From Thermoplasmata archaeon (lineage in GTDB: Archaea; Thermoplasmatota; Thermoplasmata; Lutacidiplasmatales; UBA184): a stretch of 64,000 bases of DNA. Below the pieces are notes generated by a model. That model worked only from the letters and a program-made list of their open reading frames with translations, was not told the origin of the DNA and did no database searches. The DNA is taken from positions 16,807 to 80,806 of the forward strand of contig JAJYXQ010000023.1 in assembly GCA_021796385.1 (NCBI GenBank), read 5' to 3'. Below are positions 187 to 18,768 of the stretch, piece after piece. The number at the start of each line of letters is the position of its first letter. The first letter of the stretch is position 1. The position numbers were made by a program, and so were the translations under genes.

Positions 187-1641
187 TCACTTGGGGGCTG
201 GAGGACCCGGGCCAAACTGGAACGGGATCTCCCCCTTCAGCACTCGAGTCCCAAGCTCTCGGTAGGCGATCCCCTGTAGCTGTCCCGTCTGGATCACGCT
301 GGCCAGCAAGGCGGTGCGGTCCGCCCCCTTCTTCGTCCGGGATCCCCAGGACAGCTTCCGTTTCACGGCGATGTGAGGACGGAGTCCTTGCTCTGCGATG
401 TTGTTGTGAGCATCCACACCCATCTCCGCCCACCACCACAGCTCGTCCCAGTGCTTGCTCCCGTACTTTTGAAGGGTCAGGGCCACCGTGCCCTCACGCT
501 TCACTCCCAGCCATCGGCGGGCCCACGCCATCAACCGCTTGGCCTCCCGGGCCTTCTCTTCCCCGGTGGGCCACTTGGCCACCTCCAAGATCCGCCGGCA
601 CAGTTTCTCCATCGCTCGCAGACCGCGCCAGTCCGGGGCATCGGAGGGGCGTTCCCATCCCTCCTGCCCCTGCTTCGCCTTCCGTAGGAGGTGGACCCAG
701 CACCGTTGCTTCTTCCCGTGCACGGCGTTGAAGGCCACCCCTCCATCACAGTTCAACACCTGTCCCTTGGGTCGACGCTTCCCGAGGACTCCCTCGGGAA
801 CCTCGTGGCCTGCCGACTTGTCCACCCGGAAGAAGGCCGCCTTCACATCCGGGCTGATGAAGTCCCACAGGTTGTAGTTGACCCCGTCCACTCTCCATCC
901 GGTCCAGTCCGCATTGACCTGCTTGCCTTCCTTCAGCGCCCGCCGGATCGCCTCGTAGGCAGGGGCGAAGAGACGAGCCGACCTCGCCAGCATCTTGTCG
1001 ATCTCGCCCACGCTCACTTTCAGTCCGTAGTCCGAGCTGAGGAGATCCCTCAGCATCGAGGTGGTCAAGCCCTTCAGGGACCAGTAACCAACGAGGAAGT
1101 GCGTTCCCCACGAGAAGTTCGACTTCGGGGGAGCCACGTCGTGGGGGATGTGGGCTCTCCGGATCTTCTTGCATCCCCGGCATCGGTAGCGACCGATGCG
1201 CCACTTGGTGATGCGCACATGACCAGGGATGACGGACTCCACAGTGTGCTCGTCCCATTCGAAGGGGCCCTCCAAAGGCCCTCCGCAGTCGGGACAGGCG
1301 TTCAACTCCGCCTCCCGTGTCTCGTCGATTTGCTCGGGAGGTGGTCGATGGTGCGCCTCGTGCCCCTTCTTCGCACCACGCTTGTGTGAACTCTCCTCTC
1401 CCTCCTTCTTCACGTTGGGTTTGACCCAGGGAGGGGGAGGACTTCGCCTTCCCTCCTGGAGTTCGAGGAGATGGCGGAGTCGCTCGATCTCCTTGTCCTG
1501 CTCTTCGATGCGGTGCTGAAGGCGAGCCAGAAGCTCCTCGAGCTTCTTCTTGGAAATGATGAGGGTCTCCTCGGATGCCCCGTCTGCAAGAAGTCCGTCC
1601 ACCGCCGGAGAAACCATACTTCCGGCAATAGAGGAAGACAA
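187..1641 (-). CDS. IS66-family transposase (TnpC-like, single-ORF type); mobile element gene
   Basis: 484-aa ORF with an N-terminal leucine-zipper/coiled-coil (KKKLEELLARLQHRIEEQDKEIERLRHLLELQ), a CPDCGG zinc-finger motif and a conserved IS66 core (WVHLLRK, DETREAELN). Host-like high GC. No convincing TnpB-like orf2 upstream. Confidence 0.85.
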   Translation of the reverse strand: MSSSIAGSMVSPAVDGLLADGASEETLIISKKKLEELLARLQHRIEEQDKEIERLRHLLELQEGRRSPPPPWVKPNVKKEGEESSHKRGAKKGHEAHHRPPPEQIDETREAELNACPDCGGPLEGPFEWDEHTVESVIPGHVRITKWRIGRYRCRGCKKIRRAHIPHDVAPPKSNFSWGTHFLVGYWSLKGLTTSMLRDLLSSDYGLKVSVGEIDKMLARSARLFAPAYEAIRRALKEGKQVNADWTGWRVDGVNYNLWDFISPDVKAAFFRVDKSAGHEVPEGVLGKRRPKGQVLNCDGGVAFNAVHGKKQRCWVHLLRKAKQGQEGWERPSDAPDWRGLRAMEKLCRRILEVAKWPTGEEKAREAKRLMAWARRWLGVKREGTVALTLQKYGSKHWDELWWWAEMGVDAHNNIAEQGLRPHIAVKRKLSWGSRTKKGADRTALLASVIQTGQLQGIAYRELGTRVLKGEIPFQFGPGPPAPK

Positions 1642-1884: not shown

Positions 1885-3426
1885 GTGGGGTCTCTCAGTC
1901 TCACGCCCGCATTCTCTCAAAGGGCCTTTGTGTCTCCAGATCCTTTGCTGGTGTTTGGACGAGGGCAGAAGTCTGGGGATCAACGTATGGGGCTGGCACT
2001 TTACGGGCCAGCTCCACTTGTTGCGGGGCCGAGGGAAGACGCACCGATAGAACTCTCCGTGGGAATAGTCGGGACCGGGACATCCATCTCCAGCACAAAC
2101 GCATGGATGCGCTCCGTCAGCTCAGAAGTATACTGCCGTAGCAAGAAGGGTGTTACATCCTATTTTCCAGGTCTCAACGCGGACTCACCTCTTCGAACAA
2201 GCTTGCGAACTGACCCCAGAATCCAAATCATCTTGTCCACGTCTGAGGTGGCAGAGGCGGTCGCCCCGAAGGACTATGGCGAGCGTATTGACAAGGTCAC
2301 TGCTCTCTTCGCACGTTCCTTCAAAGCTCTGTCGAGCTCGGACCCTGCGCCTCAAGTGGTCCTCTGCCCACTTCCCGATCAGGTCATTGAGCGATGTGTC
2401 ACAGGGCTCGATCGGTTCGGGCGGTATCGTTCTCCCAAAAGATTGGCCCCACTGCCACGCGGACATCAGTCGAGCCTATATGACTTCCTCCCTGACATCG
2501 GTGGGATTGAGGCTGAGGCGGCCGCCGTGGACCACTACGGCAATCTTTGGAGGGCGTTGAAAATCGAAGCGATGAGGGTTGGGTTGCCGCTTCAGGTGAT
2601 ATGGTCGCGAACCTTGGAACAGGGAGTGGGGGTACAAAACTCCGCCGTCGTTGCATGGAATCTCTTCTCTGGACTTTATTACAAGGTGAAGGGGAGGCTC
2701 TGGCACCTTCCAGTGCAATCGACCACTACCTGCTACATCGGCCTTTCGTTCTACCATGAGAGGACGTCGGAGAACGACCGTCTCAACTGTAGCATGGCCC
2801 AAATCTTCTCCGATTCGGGTGATGGTTTGGTCTTCAGAGGAGGTGCTCTGGCCCGACGTTCCGAGATGGGGCTAACACCACGATTGGACGCGCACAGTGC
2901 AAAGTCCCTAGTGAGTCAATCACTCTCTCTCTACCACACTAGGATGCAGGGTGTTTATCCTGCCCGTGTGGTGGTTCACAAGAGCTCAAGGTTCTCACTG
3001 GAAGAACGGGAGGGTATCGAGTCAGCCATCACGGAGGCTGGAATCAAGCTGTTCGACATGGTTGCGATCGAGCCGGGAAGCACATACCAGTACTACCGGC
3101 TTGGAAGGTATCCCCCGCTGCGGGGGACCTCGATACGGATGCCGGATGGTCGGTGGTTAATCTACACAAGGGGGTACGTGCCCATCAACCACACGTATTC
3201 TGGGCCCGCGACTCCCTCGCCGCTCGCCGTGCTGGAGCATTTTGGGGAGTCCTCCACAGACCAAGTCCTCTCCGACATAATGGGGTTGACTCGCCTCAAC
3301 TGGAATAGTACCGACCACTCATGCCTACTTCCAGTGACCCTAGCTTCTTCCAAGAGGGTAGGAAGTGTCCTTTCGGAATACCGTGCCGAGGGCGAACCTG
3401 GCACACAGCTCAAGTTCTACATGTAG
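1885..3426 (+). CDS. PIWI-domain protein, short prokaryotic Argonaute-like (MID-PIWI), catalytically degenerate; possible true start near 2104 (MRSVSSEVY) where GC drops
   Basis: MID/PIWI junction motif NLWRALKIEAMRVGLPLQVIW (compare Ago NLxLKINxKLGG). PIWI strand motifs TCYIGLSFYH (in place of GxDVxH, D->S) and ARVVVHKSSRF (in place of HRDG). C-terminal LNWNSTDHSCLLPVTLASSKRVGSVL resembles the PIWI C-terminal PxxYYAxxAAxR region. Length 440-513 aa fits a short pAgo. Confidence 0.7.
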   Translation: MGSLSLTPAFSQRAFVSPDPLLVFGRGQKSGDQRMGLALYGPAPLVAGPREDAPIELSVGIVGTGTSISSTNAWMRSVSSEVYCRSKKGVTSYFPGLNADSPLRTSLRTDPRIQIILSTSEVAEAVAPKDYGERIDKVTALFARSFKALSSSDPAPQVVLCPLPDQVIERCVTGLDRFGRYRSPKRLAPLPRGHQSSLYDFLPDIGGIEAEAAAVDHYGNLWRALKIEAMRVGLPLQVIWSRTLEQGVGVQNSAVVAWNLFSGLYYKVKGRLWHLPVQSTTTCYIGLSFYHERTSENDRLNCSMAQIFSDSGDGLVFRGGALARRSEMGLTPRLDAHSAKSLVSQSLSLYHTRMQGVYPARVVVHKSSRFSLEEREGIESAITEAGIKLFDMVAIEPGSTYQYYRLGRYPPLRGTSIRMPDGRWLIYTRGYVPINHTYSGPATPSPLAVLEHFGESSTDQVLSDIMGLTRLNWNSTDHSCLLPVTLASSKRVGSVLSEYRAEGEPGTQLKFYM

Positions 3427-3479: not shown

Positions 3480-5549
3480 ATGGCCAAGGGGGGAGGTAAA
3501 GTAACCTCAGAAGAAAACGGGACGATCGCGCCATTGGTCAAGCCACGGGGATCTGCGAGACTGGTTTGGAACTCTAAGCCTCACCGCGAGCCAAATCCGC
3601 GGGATCTTGAGTTCCAACCCGCGGAGGTAGTATTTCCTAATCGTGCCGCGGGTCAAACCGAGCTACTCTTACCTCGAACGTCAGAGGGTGAAGTGGATGA
3701 TAGTAAACTAAACCGTCTGATATGGGGAGACAATCTGCTTACCATGCAGGTGCTCTTGGCTCAAGGATTCGCGGGGAAATTTGAGCTCATCTACATCGAT
3801 CCCCCGTTCCTGAGTAACAGTGACTATTCCCACAACGTTTCTATAGCCGGAGTCAAAGACGTTAGACAGTCGCCTAGTATGATAGAAAGGCTTGCCTATC
3901 GCGACACTTGGAGTGGGGGTATCGACACCTACTTGGATTTTCTGTTCCCCAGACTGCAAACAATGCGGTCACTACTCAGTGACAATGGCACCATTTACAT
4001 CCACCTTGGACCGTCAGTTGCCCCATACGTCAGGGTGCTAACGGACGAAATCTTTGGAACTGCAAGGTTTCAGACCACGGTCATTTGGAAAAGAACTTCG
4101 GCTCACTCCGACACTCAGGGGTGGGGGAGAAATTATGACGAGATTCTCGTGTACTCTAAGGGAGACGCGCCAATCTGGAATCAAATGTATGGGGAGTACT
4201 CGGATGAGTACGTAAAATCGCATTACAACATGAAAGGTGAGGACGGGCGCCTCTTCATGCCAGACAACCTAACTGCGTCGGGTCTTAGTCACGGGAGCTC
4301 CGGGATGGCTTGGAAGGGTTTTGATCCTTCGACAAAGGGCTGTCACTGGAAATTTACTGTCGAGAAGCTTGACATACTTGACGCTCAGGGACGAATATAT
4401 TGGCCGCCGTCCGGGGGTTGGCCACGTTACAAGAGATATCTAGATGAAATGTCAGGGATACCGTTGCAAAGTATCTGGACAGATGTACCTCCAGTAAATA
4501 GCCAAGCAAGAGAAGATTCCGGATTTGACACCCAGAAACCACTCTCCTTACTGAAGAGGATTATCTCCGCGTCTTCAAACCCAGACGGTCTCGTTGGTGA
4601 CTTCTTCGCTGGTTCGGGCACCACCGCAGTTGCAGCAGAAACCCTAGGGCGAAGGTGGCTGTTGTGTGACCTTGGAAAGGTGGGAATCCAAGTTTCCAGG
4701 ACAAGACTCGTAGATATCGGTGCCAAGCCCTTTGTAATCGAGAACATCGGCAACTACCAACGGGAGTTGATATACAGAGAAGGAGGGAATATTGCGATGA
4801 TGCAACGCATTGTCATGAAACTTTACGGAGCAGAACCCCATCCAGCTCACACCGACATCGGGATTTTGGATGATGGTGGAAAGAGAATCCTTGTCTATGT
4901 CGGATACCCTGATCGTCCACTGACCGCGAAGAAGACCGCCGAGCTAGTCAAGATAGCACGGTCTCTCGACGGAGTCGGTTACGACAAGTTGGTACTACTC
5001 GCTTGGGACTATGAGTATAACTATGATGAGGGAATCGAGGTCCGCAGAAAGGGGTTTGGAGTCCAGGTTGAACCACGCCTCATTCCATCGAGTATCTATG
5101 ATTACTTGCGCAAGTCGAAGAACGAGGATGACTTGATCGAAAAGTTTGCTAAGAAGATTCAATTCGGCGCCAAGCCTTATCTCAAGGTCACGTCCCCCAA
5201 GGTTACCGATAGAGGCGGAGGTGAATACAACGTCGTAGTCGCCATCGAAAAGTATGTTCTCTCCGAGATTCCAGTTGAGAATGAAGACGACCGAATCGAG
5301 CTTCATAAGATATCGGCTGGAGATAGATTCGCCGTTCTCATTGACTACTGGGCTGTGGATTGGGACTACGACGGAAAAACTTTCCGCAGCAGATGGCAAG
5401 ACTTTCGATCGAACGAGAAGGGTGGCAGGTCAATCACCACTAGGGCGAATACAACGCTCACCGAGTCTAGGCGGTTCGACATTGCAGTCCGAGTAGTCGA
5501 CGTCTTCGGGAACGATGCTACCGCAACGACAAGTGTAGATCTGAGGTAA
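3480..5549 (+). CDS. mod: Type III-like DNA methyltransferase Mod subunit (beta-class N6A/N4C MTase) with about 290-aa C-terminal extension
   Basis: N-terminal LIWGDNLLTMQVLL followed by motif IV ELIYIDPPF, then motif I FFAGSGTTAVAAETLGRRWLLCDL about 260 aa later (IV...TRD...I order = beta class, typical of Type III Mod). Its stop lies 2 bp before the Res start. Confidence 0.85.
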   Translation: MAKGGGKVTSEENGTIAPLVKPRGSARLVWNSKPHREPNPRDLEFQPAEVVFPNRAAGQTELLLPRTSEGEVDDSKLNRLIWGDNLLTMQVLLAQGFAGKFELIYIDPPFLSNSDYSHNVSIAGVKDVRQSPSMIERLAYRDTWSGGIDTYLDFLFPRLQTMRSLLSDNGTIYIHLGPSVAPYVRVLTDEIFGTARFQTTVIWKRTSAHSDTQGWGRNYDEILVYSKGDAPIWNQMYGEYSDEYVKSHYNMKGEDGRLFMPDNLTASGLSHGSSGMAWKGFDPSTKGCHWKFTVEKLDILDAQGRIYWPPSGGWPRYKRYLDEMSGIPLQSIWTDVPPVNSQAREDSGFDTQKPLSLLKRIISASSNPDGLVGDFFAGSGTTAVAAETLGRRWLLCDLGKVGIQVSRTRLVDIGAKPFVIENIGNYQRELIYREGGNIAMMQRIVMKLYGAEPHPAHTDIGILDDGGKRILVYVGYPDRPLTAKKTAELVKIARSLDGVGYDKLVLLAWDYEYNYDEGIEVRRKGFGVQVEPRLIPSSIYDYLRKSKNEDDLIEKFAKKIQFGAKPYLKVTSPKVTDRGGGEYNVVVAIEKYVLSEIPVENEDDRIELHKISAGDRFAVLIDYWAVDWDYDGKTFRSRWQDFRSNEKGGRSITTRANTTLTESRRFDIAVRVVDVFGNDATATTSVDLR

Positions 5550-5550
5550 G

Positions 5551-8448
5551 TTGATGCCAAGGCAACGAAACCTCGAGGAGGAGGATATCACCCAACTCTT
5601 CCTCAGCAAGAAGCTCGCAGAGCTTGTTGACGATTGGGCGAGGGACGACTTGCCGATTGATCAACGCTGGCCAGGAACCACCCAGACCACTCACGAGCTA
5701 CTTCGGTACTGGTTCAACCGTGATGTGGATACCCCGAGTCGGTTCCACGACGCCCAACGGCGAGCGATTGAAACTCTGGTTTACTGTCACGAAGTCTTGA
5801 GAACAATCGATGGGAAGCCCATCGGGAAACTAGCTGATATCTATGAAAGGGTCGTCCCTGACAAGATTGACCAGTTCACCCATATTGCCACTGAAACTGC
5901 GGAAACTGACTACCAGAAATATTGCCTCAAGATGGCCACTGGGTCTGGGAAGACCTGGATTCTACAAGCCGCCCTCGTGTGGCAGTATTTCAATGCGGTT
6001 CGAGGAGAGGGGGCCCCTCGAAGGTTCTCGAAGCACTTTCTTGTGGTCACTCCTGGACTCGTGGTCCTATCGCGACTTCTCGATGCATTCCTAGGCAAGA
6101 AGGATGCTAGCGGAAATCGAGACCCCACCAAGGCCGACCTCCGTAACGACCTGTTCATTCCCCCAGAATGGCGGAAGGATTTCCATGTGCGTGTAATGAG
6201 TCCAGAGGATATCAATCCCTCTACCTCTGCTGGAGATGAAGCCTTTGTGCTGGTGCTCAACTGGCACAAGCTTGCGTCTAAGGATGGACGTGAGACGCTC
6301 GCTACGCAGATTTTCGGCCGAGATGAAGGAGACAACTCCGAGGTATACCTATCTTTCCTTTCTTCTTACCCAGACCTCGTGATCTTCAATGACGAGGCGC
6401 ATCATGTGCACAGCAAGGCGCGAAGTGAGGGGAGCAAGGACATCGATGCAAAGTGGTTAGAGGCCGTTAAGCGCCTCCGCGAACACAATCGCCGCCTCGG
6501 TAGCAGGGCGGGACTATTCTTGCAAGTTGACTTCTCGGCCACCCCATTCACGGGAACAGGCAATGCAAAGCGGTACTTTCCCCATATCGTCTTTGACTAC
6601 GATCTCAAAGACGCCATGAACGGCTGGTCTCCTGTCCAGAAGAAGGTGGTCCCGCTTCCCCTCGTAAAGCAGCTGTTCCTCGAAGAGAGGCAAACAACCA
6701 CAGCGGAACTGGCCACCCTTGACTTCAGAGCGATTCGAGAAGCCGCAGATGGCAAGAAGAGAGGGGCGGTGGCGGCTTTGAGCTCTGGACAACTCCTGAT
6801 GCTTGAGATTGGGCTCAAGAAATTGGATCAGATAGCCAAGGAGTTCGCACGATCAGGATTCTCGCAGAAGGCAGTCATGTTTGTCGCTTGCGAGGAGAAC
6901 GAGGTTGCCGACCTGGTCTACGATCACCTGAAATCCCGTTCGGACGACAGAGGGCGTCTTCTCAAAGACCAGATACTTGTGATTCACAGTGACGCCAAAG
7001 ACCGGATTGCAGAGGATGAGTGGAAGGAAAACCAGTTCCTCCTCGAATCGATCGATGACCCTGAGTCGGTGAACCCCAAACGCATCATCATCAGCGTCAT
7101 GATGCTCCGTGAGGGATTCGACGTTCGGAGCATCTGCGTCACCGTGGTCCTCCGGTCGAGTGAATCCGACATCCTCTTGGAACAGATGGTAGGGCGTGGA
7201 TTACGTCTGATGTTTACCGGCCCGGAGTTCTTTGAAACCAAGCTACATGCCCTTGAACAAGTTTCTCAGGGACAGACTCCTTCGGCGGCCCTCGACTTCC
7301 TGTTCGTGGTGGACCACCCCAGATTCCGACAGTTCTACGAGACTCTCAGGAACGAGGGATTCCCTATCTACTCAGGCGACAGTTCAGGAGTGAACACCAG
7401 CGGCGATCTCCAGCCTGTCAAAGTCGACCCAACGAGAGTCTCAACGTACGACGTGGGTTGGCCAATACAGTTCCACGATGAGGGAAGGATCCCAGACCCC
7501 CGTTTGATTGACCCCAAGACCTTACCGACCTTCGGCAAGACCTTCCCAGAAGTCAAAGCAGAATTCGATGCCATCCTGATTGCCGACAAGCACAAGGTCA
7601 CCGAAAACATTGTCTCGACTTGGGGCCTTCAGACAGAACTCTTCGATTACGGTTTCTTCCTTCGTCAGATAGCACTGAGGTTAACCACCGACGGAGGGGA
7701 CCGCACAACACTTTCTGCACGCCGTTCCGAGCTCATGGAACTCATCGACCGGTACACTAGTGACTATCTTTTCGGAGCGCCCGTAGATTTCACGCTCGCT
7801 GACAACTACCGTGTGCTGGTTCATGTCCCCATCTATGACTTCGTATCGCAACGACTTCGAATCGCACTGACGGACCTCCTCGGAAAAGTTGTCTTTGAGC
7901 CTCAATCCGAAGCGGTGTGGCAACGAGTATCTCGAGTGCCCGAGATTCTCACCCGCAGTAAAACCGCCGTCACCACAACCAAGTCGGTGTACCCCAAGCA
8001 AGCACCAGCGGCCAAAGGTGGGGGTTTCGAAGCCAAGTTTATGAGGGACGTCCTCGAGCGGAGTGGCAGTGTGCTTGCCTACGCCAAGCTCGATCAGAGA
8101 CACGATTTTCGTATCCGATACGTCAACGAGTACGGCATAGCTCGGGACTATTACCCTGACTTCTTAGTGAAGACCAAGGAGAAGATGTACCTTGTGGAGA
8201 CTAAGGCCAACAAGGACATGGGCACCGCAGTGGTGGCGAGGAAGGCGCGAGCCGCAACGGGGTGGTGCGAAGCGGCTAGCCGAATCAAGCCCCCTCCCGA
8301 GTTGAATCAGCCACAGGAGTGGGAGTACGTCCTCCTATCAGAGAGGACCTACGACCTCAACCGTGCAGTTGGGTTTGACGGACTCTTGGCCACTTGCAGG
8401 ACTGAGTTGCGTCATGTCCTGGCTTTTGGACAGGGCAGGTTGCAGTAA
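5551..8448 (+). CDS. res: Type III restriction enzyme Res subunit (SF2 DEAH helicase + C-terminal PD-(D/E)xK endonuclease)
   Basis: Walker A KMATGSGKTW, motif II VIFNDEAHHV, motif VI QMVGRGLRL. C-terminal nuclease motif YPDFLVKTKEKMYLVETK (PD...ExK). 965 aa matches the EcoP15I Res size class. Confidence 0.85.
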   Translation: MMPRQRNLEEEDITQLFLSKKLAELVDDWARDDLPIDQRWPGTTQTTHELLRYWFNRDVDTPSRFHDAQRRAIETLVYCHEVLRTIDGKPIGKLADIYERVVPDKIDQFTHIATETAETDYQKYCLKMATGSGKTWILQAALVWQYFNAVRGEGAPRRFSKHFLVVTPGLVVLSRLLDAFLGKKDASGNRDPTKADLRNDLFIPPEWRKDFHVRVMSPEDINPSTSAGDEAFVLVLNWHKLASKDGRETLATQIFGRDEGDNSEVYLSFLSSYPDLVIFNDEAHHVHSKARSEGSKDIDAKWLEAVKRLREHNRRLGSRAGLFLQVDFSATPFTGTGNAKRYFPHIVFDYDLKDAMNGWSPVQKKVVPLPLVKQLFLEERQTTTAELATLDFRAIREAADGKKRGAVAALSSGQLLMLEIGLKKLDQIAKEFARSGFSQKAVMFVACEENEVADLVYDHLKSRSDDRGRLLKDQILVIHSDAKDRIAEDEWKENQFLLESIDDPESVNPKRIIISVMMLREGFDVRSICVTVVLRSSESDILLEQMVGRGLRLMFTGPEFFETKLHALEQVSQGQTPSAALDFLFVVDHPRFRQFYETLRNEGFPIYSGDSSGVNTSGDLQPVKVDPTRVSTYDVGWPIQFHDEGRIPDPRLIDPKTLPTFGKTFPEVKAEFDAILIADKHKVTENIVSTWGLQTELFDYGFFLRQIALRLTTDGGDRTTLSARRSELMELIDRYTSDYLFGAPVDFTLADNYRVLVHVPIYDFVSQRLRIALTDLLGKVVFEPQSEAVWQRVSRVPEILTRSKTAVTTTKSVYPKQAPAAKGGGFEAKFMRDVLERSGSVLAYAKLDQRHDFRIRYVNEYGIARDYYPDFLVKTKEKMYLVETKANKDMGTAVVARKARAATGWCEAASRIKPPPELNQPQEWEYVLLSERTYDLNRAVGFDGLLATCRTELRHVLAFGQGRLQ

Positions 8449-8629
8449 CTATCAAGGTCTGTAGATACAATTCCTTGGGAATTTGACCTATGCCGAAGGT
8501 TGCATTCTTCAGCCATGTTTTCCAGGTGGCTCTTGACGATGCTTTCGCCTCGAGCTCGATTAACCAGCGAAGTTATTTACCCAAGTCCATCTCGAACGAG
8601 AGTTTCTCAGCCCGAGGGAGCGATGGTCT

Positions 8630-9982
8630 ATGACACAAACAATTGAAGAGTGCGTGAGGAAAGGTGTGGAAGAGGGGCTACTCAAGTTGGAGGACGGGGT
8701 CCTCACCTATGTTCAAGCCGACAAGTCCTACACGCTTACCGATGAGGAGCAGGTACGGGCAGCCCTCTTCGTCTACCTCGTTACGGAGAAATCAGTTGTT
8801 CCTAGGTCAGTCTCAATCGAACTCGATAAAGTGGATTTGCGTATCGTGAATGACGAGGGTGGAATCCAATCAATCTACGAATGCAAGGCTGAGTGTGGAG
8901 ACGAAGCCTCGGTTCAAGCGGCCATACAACAAGCTCGTGGATATGCGGCCACTCTAGGGGTCCGAGCCTTCTTCGTTGCCTTCAGCCAGGAGAATCACCT
9001 CAAGATTCGAACGGCTAGCATGGAGTTCCCCTCTCCCGTGGTACGTCCGGCCATTCCCTCGTTTCCAACGAAGATTATCTCAACAATCAACCTCAAAGGA
9101 GGGGTAGGGAAGACTTCCATTACGTGTGCTCTTGCTGAGTTTCTGACGATTGAACGACGCAAGCGAGTCCTTGTCATCGACCTTGATCCGCAGACCAACG
9201 CAACCGTTGTCCTAATGGGAGAAGAGCAGTGGCACACGACACGCGAGACAAGAGAACTCACCCTTGCCCATTACTTCAAACGGGTTCTGGAAGAGAAGTC
9301 ACCGTCGCCTTTCGACTTTGCCACGGCCCTTGTGAAGGATACGTCAAACATTGGTGGAGGGGTCAGAGGGCTTGACTTGATCCCCTCAAGTCCTCTCTTC
9401 ATTGAGATTCAGGATGATATCCCACGCATCACCACGAAGCGGTTCGGGGCAGTCTCGCATACAATGGTATTGGACAAAGCACTGCGCCCGCTCTTGAAGA
9501 AGAACCAGTACGACTACGTCCTGATCGATTGCCCTCCAAGTCTAGGGGCACTGACTTTAAACGGACTCTTCATGAGTCAGTTCTTTCTCGTGCCATGCAT
9601 CCCCGATTGGATTTCCACCTATGGAATCCCTCAGATTCTAAAGCAAGCGTACCGGTTCTCTAATGAGCACGACCGGCCTTTGAACTGCCTTGGAGTGGTT
9701 TTCTCACGGTACAAGAAGGTGAGCCGGCTCCACGAGACAACAGTACAAAGGTATCGTGCCCTTACTGGCAAGGGCATAGATAGTGAGCCGGAAGGGCCGG
9801 TCTTTCCTAAGGTATTCGACACAGTTATCAAGGATACGGGCAAGGCTGAGTCTGCTGTAGAGCCTGATCAGCCTGTGAACACTCTCAAGCAAAAATACGG
9901 TTACGGGACACCCTCCCTCTATGATCAGTACAACAACCTCTCCCTCGAGATGATGCAAGCGATAGATGCGTTTGGGGGGTAA
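8630..9982 (+). CDS. ParA/MinD(Soj)-family ATPase with about 150-aa N-terminal extension (possible PD-(D/E)xK-like fold)
   Basis: Deviant Walker A NLKGGVGKTSIT, A-prime VLVIDLDPQTNAT, Walker B YDYVLIDCPPSLG. The N-terminal 150 aa has a D...IYECK arrangement reminiscent of PD-(D/E)xK. Its own roughly 180-bp upstream region contains the palindrome ATTCCTTGGGAAT. Confidence 0.8.
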   Translation: MTQTIEECVRKGVEEGLLKLEDGVLTYVQADKSYTLTDEEQVRAALFVYLVTEKSVVPRSVSIELDKVDLRIVNDEGGIQSIYECKAECGDEASVQAAIQQARGYAATLGVRAFFVAFSQENHLKIRTASMEFPSPVVRPAIPSFPTKIISTINLKGGVGKTSITCALAEFLTIERRKRVLVIDLDPQTNATVVLMGEEQWHTTRETRELTLAHYFKRVLEEKSPSPFDFATALVKDTSNIGGGVRGLDLIPSSPLFIEIQDDIPRITTKRFGAVSHTMVLDKALRPLLKKNQYDYVLIDCPPSLGALTLNGLFMSQFFLVPCIPDWISTYGIPQILKQAYRFSNEHDRPLNCLGVVFSRYKKVSRLHETTVQRYRALTGKGIDSEPEGPVFPKVFDTVIKDTGKAESAVEPDQPVNTLKQKYGYGTPSLYDQYNNLSLEMMQAIDAFGG

Positions 9983-9991
9983 GCAGGAAAC

Positions 9992-10408
9992 ATGCCGCAC
10001 CAAGAGCATGGGTCACGCAAGTCTCCCCTGGCAAACCCAAGAGTCTCAAGCCGCGACCCCCAAGTGGTTGCGGCAGAGCTTCGAAAGCTGGCAACAAGGA
10101 TTGAGTCTGGTGACTTACGAGCACTCTCACGGGCGGTCCGCATTCTCAGGTCAAGCACCGTTCGACCGCAGCCCCGAAAGTTTCTCGGACCTGATTTGTT
10201 CAAGATCATCACTGAGGGAGGACACTTGGCTCTGGAACGGGAGATTGCGCCACTTTCATTAGAAGATCTTCGTGCTGTGGTTTCTTCCTACGGGTTGGAC
10301 TCACATGGGCGCGTTAGAAAGTGGAAGGACGTATCGAAGGTCAGGGAATTCGTGATTGCCAGACTGCTATCACACGCAGGTTCGGGTCAACGATTTCTAG
10401 AAGGATGA
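9992..10408 (+). CDS. small protein with SAP/HeH-like DNA-binding motif; possible centromere-binding (ParB/SegB-like) partner of the ParA-like gene
   Basis: 138-aa ORF 10 bp after parA-like, same strand and same low-GC composition. C-terminal LSLEDLRAVVSSYGLDSHGRVRKWKDVSKVREFVIARL fits the SAP motif pattern L..L.V.eLR..L...GL...G.K..Li.RL. Confidence 0.45.
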   Translation: MPHQEHGSRKSPLANPRVSSRDPQVVAAELRKLATRIESGDLRALSRAVRILRSSTVRPQPRKFLGPDLFKIITEGGHLALEREIAPLSLEDLRAVVSSYGLDSHGRVRKWKDVSKVREFVIARLLSHAGSGQRFLEG

Positions 10409-10728
10409 GTGTCCCTCTCCCTCAATCGCACGAGCCGTGGTAGCGGCAGGATTCTGGGACTCGGCAAGGAATTCTCCTCGACAAAGTTGGAATTGTGGAC
10501 TCCCGGGCCTGGATTCCGTGAGACTTACACCACAGGCGCCCGCTGAGATCCCTGAGTTCGACGTGAGAGGCTGATTTCACCCCGAAGGTGGCGTAGGCCT
10601 AACGAAGGGCTCCACGGTGTGGATGGAGGGAATGTTACACCGGAGTCGGCATCTCATCCAGCAACTTCAACCGGGAGACCAACTCTGCCTCCCCCAACCA
10701 TCTCCTCGAGCACCCATGCGGGCTAGGC

Positions 10729-10805
10729 CTATAGCGCGATTAGGTGTGCTTTCTTATCAGGTCTCACGCCGACAGGACACCCCAAACTCCCAACGGTGGA
10801 TCAAC
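10729..10805. repeat. about 75-bp repeat element, copy 1 (core GCGCGATTAGGTGTGCTTTCTTATCAGGTCTCACGCC)
   Basis: About 85% identical over roughly 75 bp to 14669-14745, including the exact run ATCAGGTCTCACGCCG. Non-coding context. Confidence 0.6.
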
Positions 10806-11112
10806 GCATTTCATGGCTTCATGATTTGCCCATGTTGCTTGACATTGGGTTCCCGCGTTCATGGGACTCCCCCAGCAGCGAATGTCGCAATGCCATGCCA
10901 AGGGCACGATTTACCATCATGGAATCGGACCACCAGCGATTCCGACACGGAAAACGATTCAACTCTTCAACCGCGGGGGGACCCGGGAGCAATGATAGTC
11001 GTTAGACGATTCAGCAGTTAATCGCGCATAAGGCCAGAACCATTCTGACAGCCGGGGAGTTCACGTCCTGGTCTCCCCGCCGTTGGTTCGGGGAGAACGG
11101 AGTGAAGATGGT

Positions 11113-11334
11113 TTAGGCACTGAGTTCAGGGCTAACCAACGTGAAGTGGAACTTCTCGAGAGGGTGTGCCTCGATTCTTTTCGAAGCGTCCAATATTTCG
11201 ATGGACACAATCTTCCTTCCCCTCCCGTAATCAATGACCAGTCCGTCCTCGGTCTCAACACTCTCCACGATCTTTCGGTTCTTGAGGAACTGGATGTTCA
11301 TCAGGTCGTGCTTTGCGTCGTACTCAATCTCCAT
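11113..11334 (-). CDS. DUF2283-family protein (antitoxin-like partner of DUF4258)
   Basis: 73 aa, MEIEYDAKHDLMNIQF...IVSIEILDASKRI, characteristic DUF2283 pattern. Lies 4 bp downstream of the DUF4258 gene. Confidence 0.7.
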   Translation of the reverse strand: MEIEYDAKHDLMNIQFLKNRKIVESVETEDGLVIDYGRGRKIVSIEILDASKRIEAHPLEKFHFTLVSPELSA

Positions 11335-11338
11335 GGTC

Positions 11339-11602
11339 TTACTTCCGATACCTCGTTACCTGTGATGTCAGATAGGCCGTCACGACTACATAATCCTTGT
11401 TCACACGTTCGTAGACGACACGTAGCATCATCCTCTTGCGGTTGACCACGTAGACTCTCTGCGCAACAAGCCGCCCTCCATAGCCGGGGACGGTCTCGTC
11501 CGGGGAACTGAGGGTCTCCTCCACCCACCTTCCCGGTATTCCTCGAAGACCCATCTTTCGGATGGCGAGCGGGATAATAATGATGGCTGGCATTACTTCC
11601 AC
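11339..11602 (-). CDS. DUF4258-family protein (RelE/ParE-fold toxin-like)
   Basis: 87 aa. C-terminal VYVVNRKRMMLRVVYERVNKDYVVVTAYL is typical of DUF4258. Paired with DUF2283. Confidence 0.7.
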   Translation of the reverse strand: MEVMPAIIIIPLAIRKMGLRGIPGRWVEETLSSPDETVPGYGGRLVAQRVYVVNRKRMMLRVVYERVNKDYVVVTAYLTSQVTRYRK

Positions 11603-11643
11603 CCTAACGACTCCCGCACATTAACCCTACATGAACCCTCGGT

Positions 11644-11826
11644 TCAGGCCCCCTTCCTCTGCTTCTTCGCCTTCAGCCCCAGGCGAAGAAGATAGTGGAC
11701 ATGGTCGCTTAGCGGCCGGATCTCCCTCTCGGCCTGGTCGCGGATCTCCCGCTCCAGCTCCTCGGGCAGGTAGACGGTCACCTTGACCTTTCCTTGGCTC
11801 GGCCGCCCTGGATGGCCCCCGGTCAT
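11644..11826 (-). CDS. ribbon-helix-helix (CopG/Arc-like) small DNA-binding protein, copy 1
   Basis: 60 aa: KVKVTVYLPEELEREIRDQAEREIRPLSDHVHYLLRLGL. TATA-like GGGGTATATAAGC about 25 nt upstream of the ATG on the coding strand. About 85% aa identity to 22843-23040. Confidence 0.7.
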   Translation of the reverse strand: MTGGHPGRPSQGKVKVTVYLPEELEREIRDQAEREIRPLSDHVHYLLRLGLKAKKQRKGA

Positions 11827-12023
11827 GGGGGGATCATGGGGTCTGGGGTATATAAGCTGTTGTAATAGATTACTAATGACGTATTACCGTTGTTATATGT
11901 CACGCACGGTTGGGAAGGACACCGTAGGTGTCCTAAGCGCGGCAGCAAGGGCCCCTCTCGAGTTATACGTCATGGGGAACCCTTCCCCCAGACTTGGTCT
12001 TGGTCGCTCATGCTTGTGGGCCC

Positions 12024-12206
12024 TCAACTCACACGGGCAGCCTGATCGCAGATCGGGAAGTAGGAGCATCTGCGACATTTCGGAACGGATGGGAGAGCGT
12101 CACCACTGTAAGGCTTCTGGAACTTGGCCACCCAGTCGGACAATTCCTGCCGAGCACGGCCGTCCCACGCAATCTTCCGAGGGATCAGGTCGCTGTAGAT
12201 CATCAA
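12024..12206 (-). pseudogene. C-terminal fragment of a Cas4/RecB-like PD-(D/E)xK nuclease (DUF83-type Cys cluster)
   Basis: Ends ...SVPKCRRCSYFPICDQ = C-x2-C-x-YF-x-I-C, the characteristic Cas4 C-terminal Fe-S cysteine motif. The upstream in-frame region is low-complexity, with no full-length N-terminal RecB motifs and no start codon. Confidence 0.45.
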
Positions 12207-12614
12207 CCCGTAGGGTGGAGCCGCTCCGTAGCGGTCCTCAACGATGACAGTAAGCGTAGAGCTGGAGGACGTGGGAGAAGTAAGGTGGACGCCCGGGCGC
12301 GGGCCCCCGGGACGACTTCACCTCGACGGGGACGACCCTTCCATCTGGGGCTCTCCGCAGCTCGTCGGGACGGCCCACGAGGCCGTGGACCTAGCTGGAC
12401 ATGGTGACCACCCTGCCGACCGTGGCCGAAGTCACGGACCCATCCACAGCTACCACCGGCCCGGGGAGAGCCTTCGGCGACAATGCCCGGTGGATGGCCC
12501 ATATGATGATGAGGACCAGGGTGAGGATGATCAGGGCTGGAAAAAGTGGAGCCACCATTGCACTGACCACGGGCAGCGCCCACCCCCCTCACTCCGGGCC
12601 AGCCGGGGGAAGCG

Positions 12615-13034
12615 CTAAGGCTGGCTCGGCAAGTGGCGTCGGGCCCAAGTAAGTATCCTCTCCGCCTGCGTTACCAGCCGTGCGGCTTCACTATGTTCGA
12701 CCTCCCGGTCCTCGTACTCGATGAGGTTCTTGAGGTGCAAGACGCTCCGGATTTGGCGGACCTTCTCCTCGCCTCCTTCTAGTCGGAGTCCCCTAACCAA
12801 CTCGGCCACCTCCTCATGCCCTTCGGCCGCGGACCGGATACCCTGATGGAAGGAAGTGAGGGAGTCGCACGTTGAGATCACAGCGTGGATGGCCGCCAGC
12901 CCGGCCCCGTTGGCATTGCCAGAGCCAAGGGCAAGAGAGGCAAGCCTGGCAAAGTCTGTGGCCTTGCGCAAGTACGTGCGATAGGCTCCTTGGGAGGCAT
13001 CCCTAGTTCGACCACTAGGTCTGGGCGGCGTCAT
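12615..13034 (-). CDS. HEPN-domain protein (partner of MNT nucleotidyltransferase)
   Basis: Start MTPPRPSG overlaps the MNT stop (ATGA). Rx5H-type motif IRSAAEGHEE in an all-alpha context. The longer 263-aa track ORF start is likely spurious. Confidence 0.65.
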   Translation of the reverse strand: MTPPRPSGRTRDASQGAYRTYLRKATDFARLASLALGSGNANGAGLAAIHAVISTCDSLTSFHQGIRSAAEGHEEVAELVRGLRLEGGEEKVRQIRSVLHLKNLIEYEDREVEHSEAARLVTQAERILTWARRHLPSQP

Positions 13035-13615
13035 TTGACAATCCACCCCTCGGTCTGGATGTTCCTCAGGAGAGACTGATTGCGGGGGGTGCGGACCTCG
13101 TCCTTGGTATAGGTCAATGTCGAGAGGGGATTCCCGTAGCGTTGGAAGACCTTGGATTCCAGCTTCTCCAGATCGGGTTGAATTCTTTCCTTGTCCCGAT
13201 CCCGGTCCACTTCGATGAGCAGGTCGATGTCGCTCCGGCTGCTCTCCTGACCCTTCGTGACGGAACCATACACCACTGCGCGGAGAATCTTGGGCGATAA
13301 CAGGCCGGCTCGTAACGTCTCCAGCAGATCCTCCCTCAAGGAGTCCTCCTTTCGGAATACTTCCCGGACGACAGGGACAAGGACGTGCTCTGCCTCCAGC
13401 CTCCACAGGACAGCCCGACCCGCCCGATGCATGTGTGCGATCCCCGCGCGCTCAAGGTCCTTGAGGGCCCCGATCGCCTGGGGTGCGGAGGACCCCGATA
13501 GCCGGGCCACCTCCCGGCCTGTGGATTCGCGCGTGGGAAATCGGCAAAGGACCCGGAGCACCTTCACTCGGGAGGATGAGGCGAAGAGTTCGTCCATCGG
13601 GTGCTGGAATCGCAT
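13031..13615 (-). CDS. minimal nucleotidyltransferase (MNT) with N-terminal winged-helix domain
   Basis: YGSVTKGQESSRSDIDLLIEV = GSx9-10 DxD nucleotidyltransferase motif. N-terminal HTH (RVLCRFPTRESTGREVARL). Confidence 0.8.
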   Translation of the reverse strand: MRFQHPMDELFASSSRVKVLRVLCRFPTRESTGREVARLSGSSAPQAIGALKDLERAGIAHMHRAGRAVLWRLEAEHVLVPVVREVFRKEDSLREDLLETLRAGLLSPKILRAVVYGSVTKGQESSRSDIDLLIEVDRDRDKERIQPDLEKLESKVFQRYGNPLSTLTYTKDEVRTPRNQSLLRNIQTEGWIVK

Positions 13616-15331: not shown

Positions 15332-18300
15332 GTGCGACGTGGGTTGATTCGGCGGTTTCGCCGAGAGAAGATGTTAAATGGAGTCATAGCCATCTTTATC
15401 TTTTCTCTATTCGTTATTTCTCCCGCGGACGCTGGGACGTATTCTTCGTTCCCATTGGCGACGCAGTTAGGGCATGCCGACAGTGGGAAGCTTTCCTCCC
15501 TGAAACCCCCGCTCCCCACAGTTCCGGTTCAAACCAGATATCCTGATAGTGAGAAGAAGGGAAACCACACATCTTTGTCTCGGAGTGCTCCGGGAGCTGC
15601 GGAGGTGAAAGATACCCTTGATCTCTGGAACAACACGCTGGTTCAGGGAAATTATGTGCCCAAGAGTGGCTTGCAGCTATCTTCGGTGGTTGACGATGGC
15701 CCGGTACATGCGATATTCATAGCCGACTCCGCTTCTGACAATGTGGTGGAAATAAACACCACCACCCATCTTGCGGAAAAGTACATTGAGGTTGGTGGAG
15801 ATCCCACGGCTCTTGCACTCGACAGCTCCAACGGTGAGATCTTTGTAGCCAATGGTTGGACGAATAATCTTACCGTGATCAATGCTTCGTTGGGCGAGGT
15901 GGTCGGCTCAATTCCCGTCGGAATCGCACCAGTGAGCTTGGCGTTCGACCCATTGAGCGGACTCGTGTACGTCGCTAACCTGGGATGCCTCGCTACACCA
16001 ATCTATCCTTGCGCTGGAGTAGGGAACGCAACCAACATTAGCGTAGTCAACCCCACGGTCGATTCCGTCATTGATTGGATTCCCGTGCCATGTTTCTATC
16101 CGTCTCTCAACTTTGATTCTGCCAATGAACTGTTGTATGTGACGAGCGAAAATGGAAATCGTACGCAGATTATCGATACAATCACAGAAAGTGAGTTAGG
16201 ATGGATAAACACGACCAAATCATCCGGGGCAGCCGCCCTGGATTCCCAAATCGGCACATTATTTGTAGCATCAGTCTCCAGTGCGTTACAGGTAATCAAT
16301 CTTTCAAAAGGGATTGTTGTGATGAATTTCACTTCAGGTCTCAACGGTCCTATGGCCATCACTCTTGACGAAGCTACTCAGACACTCTTTGTTTTGAACA
16401 GCAATGGAACAATAGTGAGCCTGAGCACGAACGGTAGCGAGGAGGGTATGGTCCACTTGGGCGGGATCGAAAGTCTGTCCTTCGACCCGATCCAAGGGGT
16501 AATTGACGCTCTCACTTTCACTAACGTTGACTATCTTGCCCCCACAGTGCTGACGCTCATTGGCTCCACGACAGTCGGTACGGGAGCATCGATTCTCACT
16601 GGGAGCGGACCTGGTCCACCCATCACTACGCCAGACTCGGTTCTCTTAGATGCACAAGGTGGGTTGATTCTTGTCGCCAATTACTATGCAGGGAACATCT
16701 CGCTCATCTCCGAGAAGACCCATAGGGAGATCGCTGACGTCCCGCCTTCAACGTCTCGACAAAATCCAATTGCCTTGACTTTAGACCCTCTTAATGGATT
16801 GGTCTATGCCCTCTACTATGATGGTTGTTGCGTTGCGGGGACTCTGGCAGCCATAAATCCCAATAACGGAACAGTGGTGACATCCATTGCAGTTGGCCTC
16901 CAACCAACTGACGTAGTTTATGACCCGATAAACAATGTTCTATACGTGGTGAATTCAGGGAACAGGGACCTATCGATTATTGACCCCCAATCCAATATGG
17001 TCCTCAGGAGCATCGCAACTTGGGAGATTCCAGAGCAAGATGCGGTAGATCCGACCAATGGGTATCTCTACGTCAGCGAATGGGGTTGTGAGAATAGTCT
17101 TTACTGCCCTGGCATGTTGCAAGTTCTCGACCCCTCCACCGAGCAGTTCGTTGAACGGATCCCAATCGGTGAGCGGCCAGAAGGGATAGCGTTTGACCCT
17201 TGGGATTCCGAAGTCTTTGTTGCCGAATCGTACTCGAACGACCTGATGATCATTTCTTCGACTAATGGAACTCTCATCGGATCCATCCCAGTGGGGTCAT
17301 CCCCGTACGGGATCTGTTTCGACCCGCTCAACGGATTCCTGTATGTTACCGATTCGGACATGTACACATACCCAATCGTCGGCATAAGCCCTGTTGCGGA
17401 CCAAGGGCCCGACAACCTGACCGAGGTCAACGGGATGTCTAACACCGTGACAGGCGAGATCTCCGTGGGAGCTAGCCCACTGGCCGTGACGTGGGGAAGT
17501 TCCAATGATACTCTTCTCGTGGCCAACTCGGTTTCAGGTACGCTTTCGTTCGTGAATCCAGGGATAATCCCATCCCCCCTATTGAACATCACGCTGTCTC
17601 CGAGGAGCGCAGTGATTGGTTTGGGCGGAAATGTTTCCTTAAACGCATCGGTAGTGTGCCAACCCCTAGCTTGTCCCGAGGGGGTAAACTACACTTGGAA
17701 TATGACCACTTATCTTGTGGGGACACTCATCCAAAATCATGGAAGCACGGCCTCGTTCCACGCCAACGACTCGACGGGACGAGTGAATGTGACGGTAAAT
17801 GTCAGCATAGGAAAGTATTCGTTGGGAAGTCAACCGGCCACCATATCCATCACTAGCTTGACTTCGGTGGGAATCACTCCCGATCTTTCCCGCGTTGCCC
17901 CTGGGCAAAGCGTAACGTTAGTGCCTCATCTCCTTTGTGAGCCGGTGACATGTCCGTCCGCGGCGGTGAATCTGACCTGGATTGAGCGAGGGGTGAATGG
18001 TTCAATTCGAAACCTTCCCAATGGATCCGTACTCCTCGTCGCAGGGGCAGTGCCTGGAGCGATCAACATCACATTGGTCGTACTGATGGGAACCTTTACA
18101 ATGTCAGCGCGGGGGCAAGTGGTGATTGTAACCTTGCTTCGGGCTTTCATAAGCCCCAACCTGGTGACGCTAACCCCGCATCAATCCTTTACCTTACGAC
18201 TTCAACTCGAGTGCAGTAGCGACCCATGTCTTGGGGGCGAAACATACTCCTGGTCTTTAAGCGATCCCAGCCTCGGTACGCTAAGCGCTCTTCACAATGC

Positions 18301-18598
18301 GTCAACCAACTTCCGTGCTGGGGGCCAGGTGGGAAGTGTGACCATTCATGTGACCGTGACATTGGATCAAGCCAATGTGACCGCCTCCACGCAGGTTTCA
18401 ATCACAGCTCCTCAGTCGACTTTCGTTGGCTTGCCTAGTTATTATGGCTACACTATGATCGGAGTGGTGGTGGCGGCAGCAGTTACGGCGGTGGTAGTGC
18501 TGCTGGCACGGAAAAGGAAGGGTACCCCGGGATACAGAATCCACCAAGACTCGAAGAACATTACGGATGGGGCGGCGATGCCGGTGGCGGTGGAATAG
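15332..18598 (+). CDS. large cell-surface protein with YVTN/NHL-type beta-propeller repeats and C-terminal TM anchor
   Basis: Signal peptide MLNGVIAIFIFSLFVISPADA. Repeated (L/F)(Y/F)VAN..sn.v(t/s)vI units. Very many NxS/T sequons. C-terminal TMIGVVVAAAVTAVVVLLARKRKG. Confidence 0.8.
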   Translation: MRRGLIRRFRREKMLNGVIAIFIFSLFVISPADAGTYSSFPLATQLGHADSGKLSSLKPPLPTVPVQTRYPDSEKKGNHTSLSRSAPGAAEVKDTLDLWNNTLVQGNYVPKSGLQLSSVVDDGPVHAIFIADSASDNVVEINTTTHLAEKYIEVGGDPTALALDSSNGEIFVANGWTNNLTVINASLGEVVGSIPVGIAPVSLAFDPLSGLVYVANLGCLATPIYPCAGVGNATNISVVNPTVDSVIDWIPVPCFYPSLNFDSANELLYVTSENGNRTQIIDTITESELGWINTTKSSGAAALDSQIGTLFVASVSSALQVINLSKGIVVMNFTSGLNGPMAITLDEATQTLFVLNSNGTIVSLSTNGSEEGMVHLGGIESLSFDPIQGVIDALTFTNVDYLAPTVLTLIGSTTVGTGASILTGSGPGPPITTPDSVLLDAQGGLILVANYYAGNISLISEKTHREIADVPPSTSRQNPIALTLDPLNGLVYALYYDGCCVAGTLAAINPNNGTVVTSIAVGLQPTDVVYDPINNVLYVVNSGNRDLSIIDPQSNMVLRSIATWEIPEQDAVDPTNGYLYVSEWGCENSLYCPGMLQVLDPSTEQFVERIPIGERPEGIAFDPWDSEVFVAESYSNDLMIISSTNGTLIGSIPVGSSPYGICFDPLNGFLYVTDSDMYTYPIVGISPVADQGPDNLTEVNGMSNTVTGEISVGASPLAVTWGSSNDTLLVANSVSGTLSFVNPGIIPSPLLNITLSPRSAVIGLGGNVSLNASVVCQPLACPEGVNYTWNMTTYLVGTLIQNHGSTASFHANDSTGRVNVTVNVSIGKYSLGSQPATISITSLTSVGITPDLSRVAPGQSVTLVPHLLCEPVTCPSAAVNLTWIERGVNGSIRNLPNGSVLLVAGAVPGAINITLVVLMGTFTMSARGQVVIVTLLRAFISPNLVTLTPHQSFTLRLQLECSSDPCLGGETYSWSLSDPSLGTLSALHNASTNFRAGGQVGSVTIHVTVTLDQANVTASTQVSITAPQSTFVGLPSYYGYTMIGVVVAAAVTAVVVLLARKRKGTPGYRIHQDSKNITDGAAMPVAVE

Positions 18599-18750
18599 CG
18601 CAGGCTTGGAGTCATCCGTACTTGGACACCGGAGAGATTCTCGGGGAGAACCCTGTAGTTGTCGCACACCAGTCGCAGGCCCGACTCCGTCGCTTTCAGT
18701 TGGGTTGCCGGTTCAACCGCTCCAGCACCATCTCGCAGGCCGAGGGGATA

Positions 18751-18768
18751 CAACGCGGGTTATACATC
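18751..18768 (+). promoter_or_regulatory. shared 18-mer CAACGCGGGTTATACATC, copy 2 (about 90 bp upstream of 18855 gene)
   Basis: Exact match to 14921-14938. Confidence 0.35.

Follow-up and report, generated by a model that had tools for sequence, protein, structure and literature searches.

ATPases of the ParA/MinD family are positioning machines, and HSDR_N_2 domains are the cutting heads of restriction enzymes. In the type Ib partition (par) operons (ParF/ParG of TP228, delta/omega of pSM19035 and archaeal SegA/SegB), a ParA-type ATPase is followed by a small, coupled partner with a flexible basic segment and a DNA-binding domain; the partners ParG, omega and SegB are ribbon-helix-helix (RHH) proteins. 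The type Ia ATPases (P1 ParA, F SopA) carry about 100 or more residues ahead of the Walker A motif, and this extension consists of a helix and a winged helix-turn-helix (HTH) for operator binding. In OLD/Gabija, PARIS, Lamassu and Septu, the ATPases are of the ABC/SMC type, and the nucleases are of the Toprim, HNH or Cap4 families. Here, we describe a two-gene locus (positions 8630–10408, plus strand) in a 64,000-nucleotide (nt) stretch of DNA, hereafter called the window, from a Thermoplasmata archaeon (assembly GCA_021796385.1, contig JAJYXQ010000023.1, positions 16,807–80,806). In this locus a ParA-family ATPase carries an N-terminal domain of the HSDR_N_2 type, and we discuss it as a possible conflict or addiction module.

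According to our analysis, the module resembles a type Ib par operon in its layout and ATPase–nuclease defence proteins in its logic, being a full member of neither group. It shares with the type Ib operons the order of a ParA gene followed by a small coupled partner; it differs from them in the nuclease domain of the ATPase, in a partner predicted to be similar to helix-extended loop-helix (HeH)/SAP proteins, in the absence of centromere repeats and in belonging to a mostly chromosomal family. With the type Ia ATPases it has in common the long stretch ahead of the Walker A motif. Along its entire length, a lead of about 35 amino acids (aa) included, the N-terminal domain is homologous to the HSDR_N_2 domains of type I HsdR and of the type IIG/IIB enzymes BpuSI, BsaXI and DrdV, and it has the same E...D...ExK...QxxxY/N signature. 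In contrast to these enzymes, in which the domain is joined to a superfamily 2 (SF2) motor or to a methyltransferase/specificity module, the window protein combines it with a ParA (SIMIBI-class) ATPase.

Domain architecture of the fusion ATPase

The following features were delineated in the fusion protein; confidence in the structural model is given as the predicted local distance difference test (pLDDT).

8630–9982, plus strand: coding sequence of the fusion ATPase (450 aa, ATG start), with an HSDR_N_2-like PD-(D/E)xK domain, a Pro-rich linker and then a ParA/Soj-type ATPase
8630–9016, plus strand: N-terminal nuclease-fold domain (aa 1–129), with a helix and three-stranded lead (aa 5–35) and an alpha-beta-beta-beta-alpha-beta-beta core (aa 38–129)
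8744–8749, plus strand: E39-E40, an acidic pair with which the first core helix begins, the position of PD-(D/E)xK motif I; invariant in 29 sequences
8834–8836, plus strand: D69, the catalytic aspartate of PD-(D/E)xK motif II; invariant, at the start of strand 68–73 in the model
8879–8887, plus strand: E84-C85-K86, ExK motif III at the end of strand 79–86; E84 invariant, K86 in at least 90%
8930–8944, plus strand: Q101-A-R-G-Y105, a QxxxY motif of the kind present in HsdR and in nucleases of the RecB family; Q101 in at least 90%, the tyrosine in six of seven fusions
9017–9067, plus strand: Pro-rich linker (aa 130–146, MEFPSPVVRPAIPSFPT), without secondary structure and poorly conserved among the fusions; pLDDT drops here to about 84–85
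9068–9979, plus strand: ParA/Soj-type ATPase domain (aa 147–450), from AAA_31, CbiA and matches to Soj/ParA structures in the PDB
9095–9115, plus strand: deviant Walker A motif K156-GGVG-K161-T162, signature lysine included; invariant columns in an alignment with relatives (A1)

By every sequence criterion tested, the window protein is a ParA-family ATPase. Pfam AAA_31 (115.9 bits against a cut-off of 27, E = 2.5e-33) and CbiA (54.4 bits against 25.4, E = 1.5e-14) were both found in the 450-aa protein and together span aa 147–375. Solved Soj/ParA structures match it from residue 144 on, mostly from about 147–149; the matches to ParF (4dzz) and to 7dut, which was deposited as Soj and is presumably SegA, are limited to some 45 residues in the vicinity of the Walker A motif. 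No NCBIfam equivalog model reached its cut-off for the ATPase, and the top similarities in this database were to the RepA, ParA and PrgP partition ATPases, all far under the cut-offs. The ATPase domain shares about 48% identity with many ParA proteins, each about 285 aa long, both of archaea (Nitrosarchaeum, Bathyarchaeia, Hadesarchaea, Thermoplasmatota) and of bacteria. In alignment A1, D184 and D186 (Walker A') and D300 (Walker B) are also invariant, and with every ATPase motif retained the protein looks functional as an ATPase. The C-terminal motif NTLKQKYGYG is specific to its subfamily.

Because the Pfam domain starts at aa 147 and the structures match from about 147–149, the N-terminal extension comprises about 146 aa, close to the roughly 150 aa ahead of the Walker A motif that had been estimated in the original prediction, which was made from the sequence of the window. 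Direct comparison of this region with Pfam HSDR_N_2 (PF13588) gave 13.9 bits (E = 0.058), below the cut-off of 25. Sub-threshold matches to the same model were obtained for the N-domains of four of seven fusions (best E = 5.7e-4), and searches of NCBIfam and of PDB sequences with the N-domain, including a PDB profile search, returned nothing significant.

The relationship was revealed by a profile (A3) for which the N-domains of seven homologues, all full-length fusions, were aligned. A search (hmmsearch) of 1.84 billion representative proteins, clustered at 50% identity, produced 149 matches at E ≤ 1e-3. Those outside the fusions were either the N-termini of type IIG/type I-like enzymes of 667–1186 aa, in which HSDR_N_2 is combined with N6_Mtase with or without Methylase_S, or stand-alone HSDR_N_2 proteins of about 200–400 aa. 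The HSDR_N_2-bearing methyltransferase fusions were matched at E values of 1e-12 to 1e-9, and a Pfam scan of 20 of the matches found all 16 that lie outside the fusion lineage to be HSDR_N_2-positive above threshold (35–69 bits) in the matched region.

For residue conservation we used an alignment of 29 sequences, in which the ParA-fused N-domains (30–37% identical to that of the window) were combined with bona fide HSDR_N_2 proteins. Besides E39-E40, D69 and E84, residues G12 and Y27 are invariant. D69 lies within VDLRI and E84-C85-K86 within IYECK, the segments in which a PD-(D/E)xK-like signature had been noticed originally; since D69 and E84 are invariant and K86 is kept in at least 90% of the sequences at such low identity, this signature is more than chance. 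The QxxxY motif has been described for the EcoR124I HsdR nuclease (PMC2475608). Relative to free HSDR_N_2 domains, the ParA-fused domains have a common 9-residue deletion of the loop between E64 and D69.

The AlphaFold2 model of the N-domain obtained from the same alignment (mean pLDDT 95, predicted template modelling score 0.86) has a PD-(D/E)xK-type core, and its fold matches include tRNA-splicing endonucleases, Hjc, BsaXI and DrdV; with BsaXI, 126 residues were aligned at 21% identity. A known N-terminal HTH domain of ParA, in homologues that are ordinary SegA proteins, would have contradicted the original prediction, but this is not what was observed: the P1 ParA structures 3ez2 and 3ez9, as well as 3ez7, align with the window protein from residue 149 on, past the extension, and the model resembles nucleases. 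Judging from homology established transitively through the profile and from the predicted fold, the first 146 aa form a domain with the restriction-endonuclease fold and, in particular, a divergent HSDR_N_2 domain, which sharpens the initial PD-(D/E)xK assignment. In terms of its conserved residues, the domain is apparently complete and competent for catalysis.

The partner protein and the two-gene family

The second gene of the locus is as follows.

9992–10408, plus strand: partner coding sequence (138 aa), with a disordered N-terminus, a helical hairpin (aa 23–55), a disordered basic linker (aa 56–68) and an HeH/SAP-like helical domain (aa 69–137)

The two open reading frames (ORFs), whose coordinates were the same as those given originally (8630–9982 and 9992–10408, both on the plus strand), are separated by 9 nt. 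In every fusion homologue located on a long enough contig, an ORF of 124–125 aa overlaps the stop codon of the ATPase gene, and the partner ORFs of the other fusions are 37–42% identical to that of the window. An iterative search revealed a partner homologue beside the related ParA gene in 77 of 90 loci, nearly always directly downstream, with a start that mostly overlaps or abuts the ATPase stop codon. The window partner and a partner from Bathyarchaeia were aligned by hhalign with a probability of 98.4%. Searches of Pfam, NCBIfam and the PDB with 18 members of the partner family gave no significant match, and a single member produced a SAP_RNF34_RFFL match at E = 0.22 only. Homology searches with the partner returned 11 and 19 proteins, in which every given name was "hypothetical protein"; the window partner itself is unnamed. 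The structure predicted from an alignment of 27 sequences (pLDDT 78 overall and about 90 in the C-terminal half) has a three-helix C-terminal domain, which is predicted to adopt an HeH/SAP-like, DNA-binding-type fold. The small protein with a putative SAP/HeH-like motif, which had been suggested originally as a possible partner, proves to be a conserved companion of the ATPase.

Our search of species-representative genomes yielded at least 80 loci of a parent module, which consists of a ParA protein of about 285–370 aa and a partner of 110–230 aa and occurs in bacteria and archaea, mostly on chromosomes and in varied contexts. Its hosts include Nitrosopumilus, Streptomyces, Mycobacterium, Clostridium, Paenibacillus, Agrobacterium and many Ktedonobacterales. 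Clustering of the neighbouring ORFs showed that the ATPase and the partner are the sole recurrent genes across 80 related loci; the fusion loci likewise have nothing else in common, and no conserved third gene was found in either set. The locus is, in this respect, a self-contained two-gene module. The module is widespread and unannotated, and the nuclease is a rare add-on to it, which the original prediction had missed.

That prediction had rightly called the architecture unusual: in the set of 1.84 billion representatives, just two clusters consist of full-length fusions, one P0005-like, including the window protein, and one P0133-like. The protein identical to that of the window (P0001) was read on 15 metagenome contigs; of the other full-length homologues, P0002–P0006 are 47–52% identical to it and P0112 is 37% identical. 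A metagenome scan added one further fusion on a 1.9-kb contig, the other matches being type IIG-like or located on contigs too short for the ORF. In a neighbour-joining tree calculated without support values, the seven core fusions are monophyletic, and P0112 and P0133 make up a second lineage.

Two loci that resembled genuine split versions, with separate nuclease and ParA genes, were rejected. In the locus of P0132 (L101), the N-domain ORF (859–1386) and the ParA ORF (1311–2228, starting with VVSTINLKGG) overlap in different frames, and the break falls near the linker, which indicates a frameshift inside a fusion; it was seen in three assemblies, which derive from at least two sequencing runs. 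The other locus (L104, positions 3623–5366, beside thiolase genes) is a fragmented fusion copy, in which a 140-aa N-domain is followed by pieces of 62, 109 and 71 aa, two or more of them with a match to the ATPase, and finally by a 150-aa ORF.

Some further features of the parent module were observed in Ktedonobacterales. In five loci (L047, L063, L066, L076 and L096), a GH15 glycoside hydrolase of about 680 aa and a DUF6884 protein of about 155 aa are encoded on the same strand upstream of the ParA–partner pair, an association specific to this lineage, and a DUF6884 protein is also found upstream in L034, L058 and L061. In another five (L079–L081, L086 and L093), the usual small partner is missing; four of them have an ORF of 250–310 aa after the ATPase, for which the single copy that was scanned gave only a weak TIC20-like match, and this ORF may be an alternative partner.

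Flanks of the module and the surrounding island

The regions adjoining the module and the genes downstream of it are listed below.

8449–8629, intergenic: upstream region without iterated repeats, with a palindrome and a Shine-Dalgarno-like site
10409–11112, non-coding: downstream stretch (about 700 nt) in which neither centromere-like repeats nor an Rfam family were found
11113–13615, minus strand: toxin–antitoxin-type genes, beginning with DUF2283 (11113–11334), DUF4258 (11339–11602) and an RHH/CopG-like gene (11644–11826)
12615–12971, minus strand: HEPN protein (longest ORF, 12615–13406), followed by a nucleotidyltransferase (13031–13615)

It had been proposed to look for parS-like repeats at 8449–8629 and 10409–10700. 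Scans of the window at 8300–8750 and 10300–11150 revealed such repeats at chance level only, with 7-mer recurrence giving p = 0.85 upstream and p = 0.997 and 0.19 downstream. Across the family, p ≤ 0.02 was reached in the same test by 2 of 66 flanks upstream and by 3 of 70 downstream, which is near chance. In these repeat scans, the window module did not show the centromere expected of a partition system. A Shine-Dalgarno-like sequence, GAGGGAG, is located 5' of the ATPase gene at 8612–8618. The plus strand of the upstream region (8449–8629) had no promoter-like site, and the counts of promoter and terminator sites did not exceed those in shuffled sequence. Between the preceding gene, res, and the ATPase gene, at 8462–8490, there is an imperfect 13-nt palindrome, TAGATACAATTCC-TTG-GGAATTTGACCTA, which could be an operator.

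The fusion gene lies 181 nt downstream of, and on the same strand as, a complete type III restriction-modification (R-M) pair, in which Mod (3480–5549) has an N6_N4_Mtase domain and Res (5551–8448) has a ResIII helicase and a C-terminal TnsA-like/REase_III nuclease region. The guanine-plus-cytosine (GC) content from about 2 kb to 21 kb is 0.49–0.56, compared with 0.60–0.70 over most of the remaining window, and an IS66-family transposase gene (DDE_Tnp_IS66 and zf-IS66; 187–1641, minus strand) marks the left edge of this region; together, they suggest a horizontally acquired island of about 20 kb. In clustering at 90% identity, the island genes had 2–3 members and the core genes 8–12, and the small clusters fit a strain-variable island. 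Other observations in the window include a 513-aa ORF without a Pfam match upstream of mod, on the strand of the R-M genes (1885–3426), and two NHL/YNCE-type beta-propeller proteins of 1088 and 805 aa within the low-GC island (15332–21272, plus strand). A 99-nt tRNA-Ser(CGA) was called by ARAGORN at 26265–26363, where the Rfam tRNA model stayed below threshold; a 348-aa ORF next to it (26298–27344, minus strand) has no PDB relative. The only confirmed tRNA is tRNA-Val at 37951–38023.

Only one other fusion is located on a long contig (L009). Downstream of its module, which encodes P0005, there is a restriction-like block of three genes at 6196–12681, comprising a 92-aa ORF, a 1014-aa helicase with SNF2 and PLD domains and a 1057-aa MmeI/Eco57I-like methyltransferase.

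Possible functions of the nuclease-fused module

ParA ATPases form ATP-sandwich dimers and then bind DNA non-specifically. The nuclease domains of HsdR and of type IIG enzymes have one active site each, and a double-strand break needs two copies of them; therefore, if the ATP-dependent dimerisation of the ParA part on DNA brought two nuclease domains together, this pairing would license cleavage. Held on the flexible Pro-rich linker of about 17 aa, the nucleases would be paired only in the dimer bound to both ATP and DNA. With its predicted HeH domain the partner would bind DNA, and its basic segment (aa 56–68) may stimulate ATP hydrolysis, as ParB, ParG and MinE-type partners do. Hydrolysis would then dissolve the dimer and reset or restrain the nuclease, so that the partner would act as a regulator or an antidote. 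The role of such a device would be one of conflict, either defence against incoming DNA or addiction that stabilises the island, and not faithful segregation. This reading of the fusion as an ATP-dimerisation-gated, partner-regulated nuclease of a conflict or addiction module is the one that we prefer tentatively, as it may well prove wrong and classical partition is a live rival. A broader proposal, that the whole family of ParA with HeH partners is a DNA-surveillance or conflict module (defence or addiction), of which the nuclease-fused form is the self-contained effector version, appears unlikely to us; under it, the fusion would be the first ATP-dimerisation-gated nuclease system built on a SIMIBI-class ATPase and not on an ABC/SMC or AAA+ one.

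In its design logic, a DNA-sensing, dimerising ATPase with a nuclease effector, the putative defence module would be akin to OLD/Gabija GajA, PARIS AriA/B, Lamassu and Septu; the window copy is also situated in an island that has R-M and toxin–antitoxin genes. A conflict role of the fusion is favoured by this setting, with the type III R-M pair close upstream, the toxin–antitoxin-type genes downstream and the low GC content, and by the restriction-like block next to the P0005 module. Several observations weigh against a conflict function. To these defence proteins, the window ATPase shows no match past the P-loop: among the PADLOC-DB 2.0 defence models, neither protein had a match beyond the Walker A loop, the ATPase matching PDC-M28B over the P-loop only (aa 149–186, E = 6e-5) and the partner matching nothing, with a weak match of the N-domain to a type I methyltransferase model (E = 7e-4). 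The immediate neighbours of the nuclease-less parent module at 75 loci are heterogeneous and include housekeeping genes; ATPases similar to GajA, AriA, Old or AbiL account for at most about 5 of 143 neighbours, and some of these are ordinary ABC transporters. The parent module has no convincing defence-island signature, and generic ABC proteins confound the count of neighbouring ATPases. Adjacency to R-M genes was observed in two informative fusion contexts only. A centromere in the form of a single or intragenic site could escape repeat scans, the mechanism outlined above is one that we infer in its entirety, and the fusion can decay: it may be easily lost, since one relative is frameshifted and another is fragmented.

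The most serious alternative, though we consider it unlikely, is a type Ib-like partition or positioning system of the island or of a former plasmid element, in which ParA would form a gradient on the nucleoid, the HeH partner would be the adaptor for the centromere or cargo, and the PD-(D/E)xK domain would serve as a DNA anchor or as a site-specific nicking or resolving module. Consistent with this are the gene order and sizes, which are those of a small par operon with the ATPase followed by a translationally coupled partner, the predicted DNA-binding-type fold of this partner, the similarities of the ATPase to RepA, ParA and PrgP, distant as they are, and the location of the window copy in an acquired island with an IS66 transposase. 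Mobile elements do carry the module: 17 predicted viral/proviral IMG/VR contigs have it in complete form, and it is found on a few plasmids. However, the partner family is present on just 5 of 72,556 plasmid records, no close relatives of the ATPase were found among 50,697 phage records, and the family is overwhelmingly chromosomal, without recurrent integrase, replication or conjugation families among the immediate neighbours at 75 module loci. The one plasmid examined, pSS37A-Re-4 of Methylocystis iwaonis, encodes a nuclease-less "AAA family ATPase" followed by two hypothetical proteins (36–41 kb of the record), between a multiubiquitin/E2/ThiF/DUF6527 cluster with CopG and Fic proteins and type IV secretion system genes; relaxase and VirB/VirD4 genes flank the module. 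The sister plasmid NZ_AP027145.1 likewise has the partner gene. Plasmid pSS37A-Re-4 has separate repA/repB/repC genes and a ParB-family gene, and its own repABC weakens the partition reading, as does the absence of iterated repeats adjoining the module both in the window and family-wide. In addition, catalytic residues kept in full are unexpected for a mere anchor domain, and for a segregation ATPase, an active, non-specific nuclease tethered to the nucleoid would be a hazard.

Two other explanations were considered. It is improbable that the fusion is an evolutionary accident, i.e., a recent, rare, neutral or decaying product whose nuclease domain has no selected function. The two full-length clusters among 1.84 billion representatives and the broken relatives, one frameshifted in three assemblies and one in fragments, are in line with such an accident; against this, the N-domains have diverged to 30–37% identity to that of the window with all catalytic residues retained, the core fusions make up a clade beside which there is a second deep lineage, the window gene is intact with an identical protein on 15 contigs, and the common loop deletion of nine residues points to an old, adapted lineage. 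That the module is a non-autonomous accessory of the adjacent type III R-M system, for example one recruiting or regulating Res/Mod on DNA, seems very improbable, even though it follows Res closely on the same strand, its nuclease domain comes from a family used by restriction enzymes, and a helicase–methyltransferase pair is also located near the module on the second long fusion contig. Mod and Res are complete alone, the latter with its own C-terminal nuclease region, and the R-M-like neighbours differ in type and side between the two contexts. The fusion loci have just the ATPase and the partner in common, and nearly all loci of the parent module are without R-M genes.

Our literature search found no description of a ParA–nuclease fusion or of a ParA-like anti-phage ATPase. 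If the module were an ordinary partition system, the fusion would be a mere curiosity of domain shuffling. If, in line with the reading that we prefer, ParA gates the nuclease through its ATP switch, the module would represent a new, simple design in which two proteins control DNA cleavage, and conflict systems would gain a new class of ATPase. For the larger family of ParA and "hypothetical protein" pairs, which extends from Nitrosopumilus to Streptomyces and is apparently unstudied, the fusion may serve as a Rosetta-stone hint to function.

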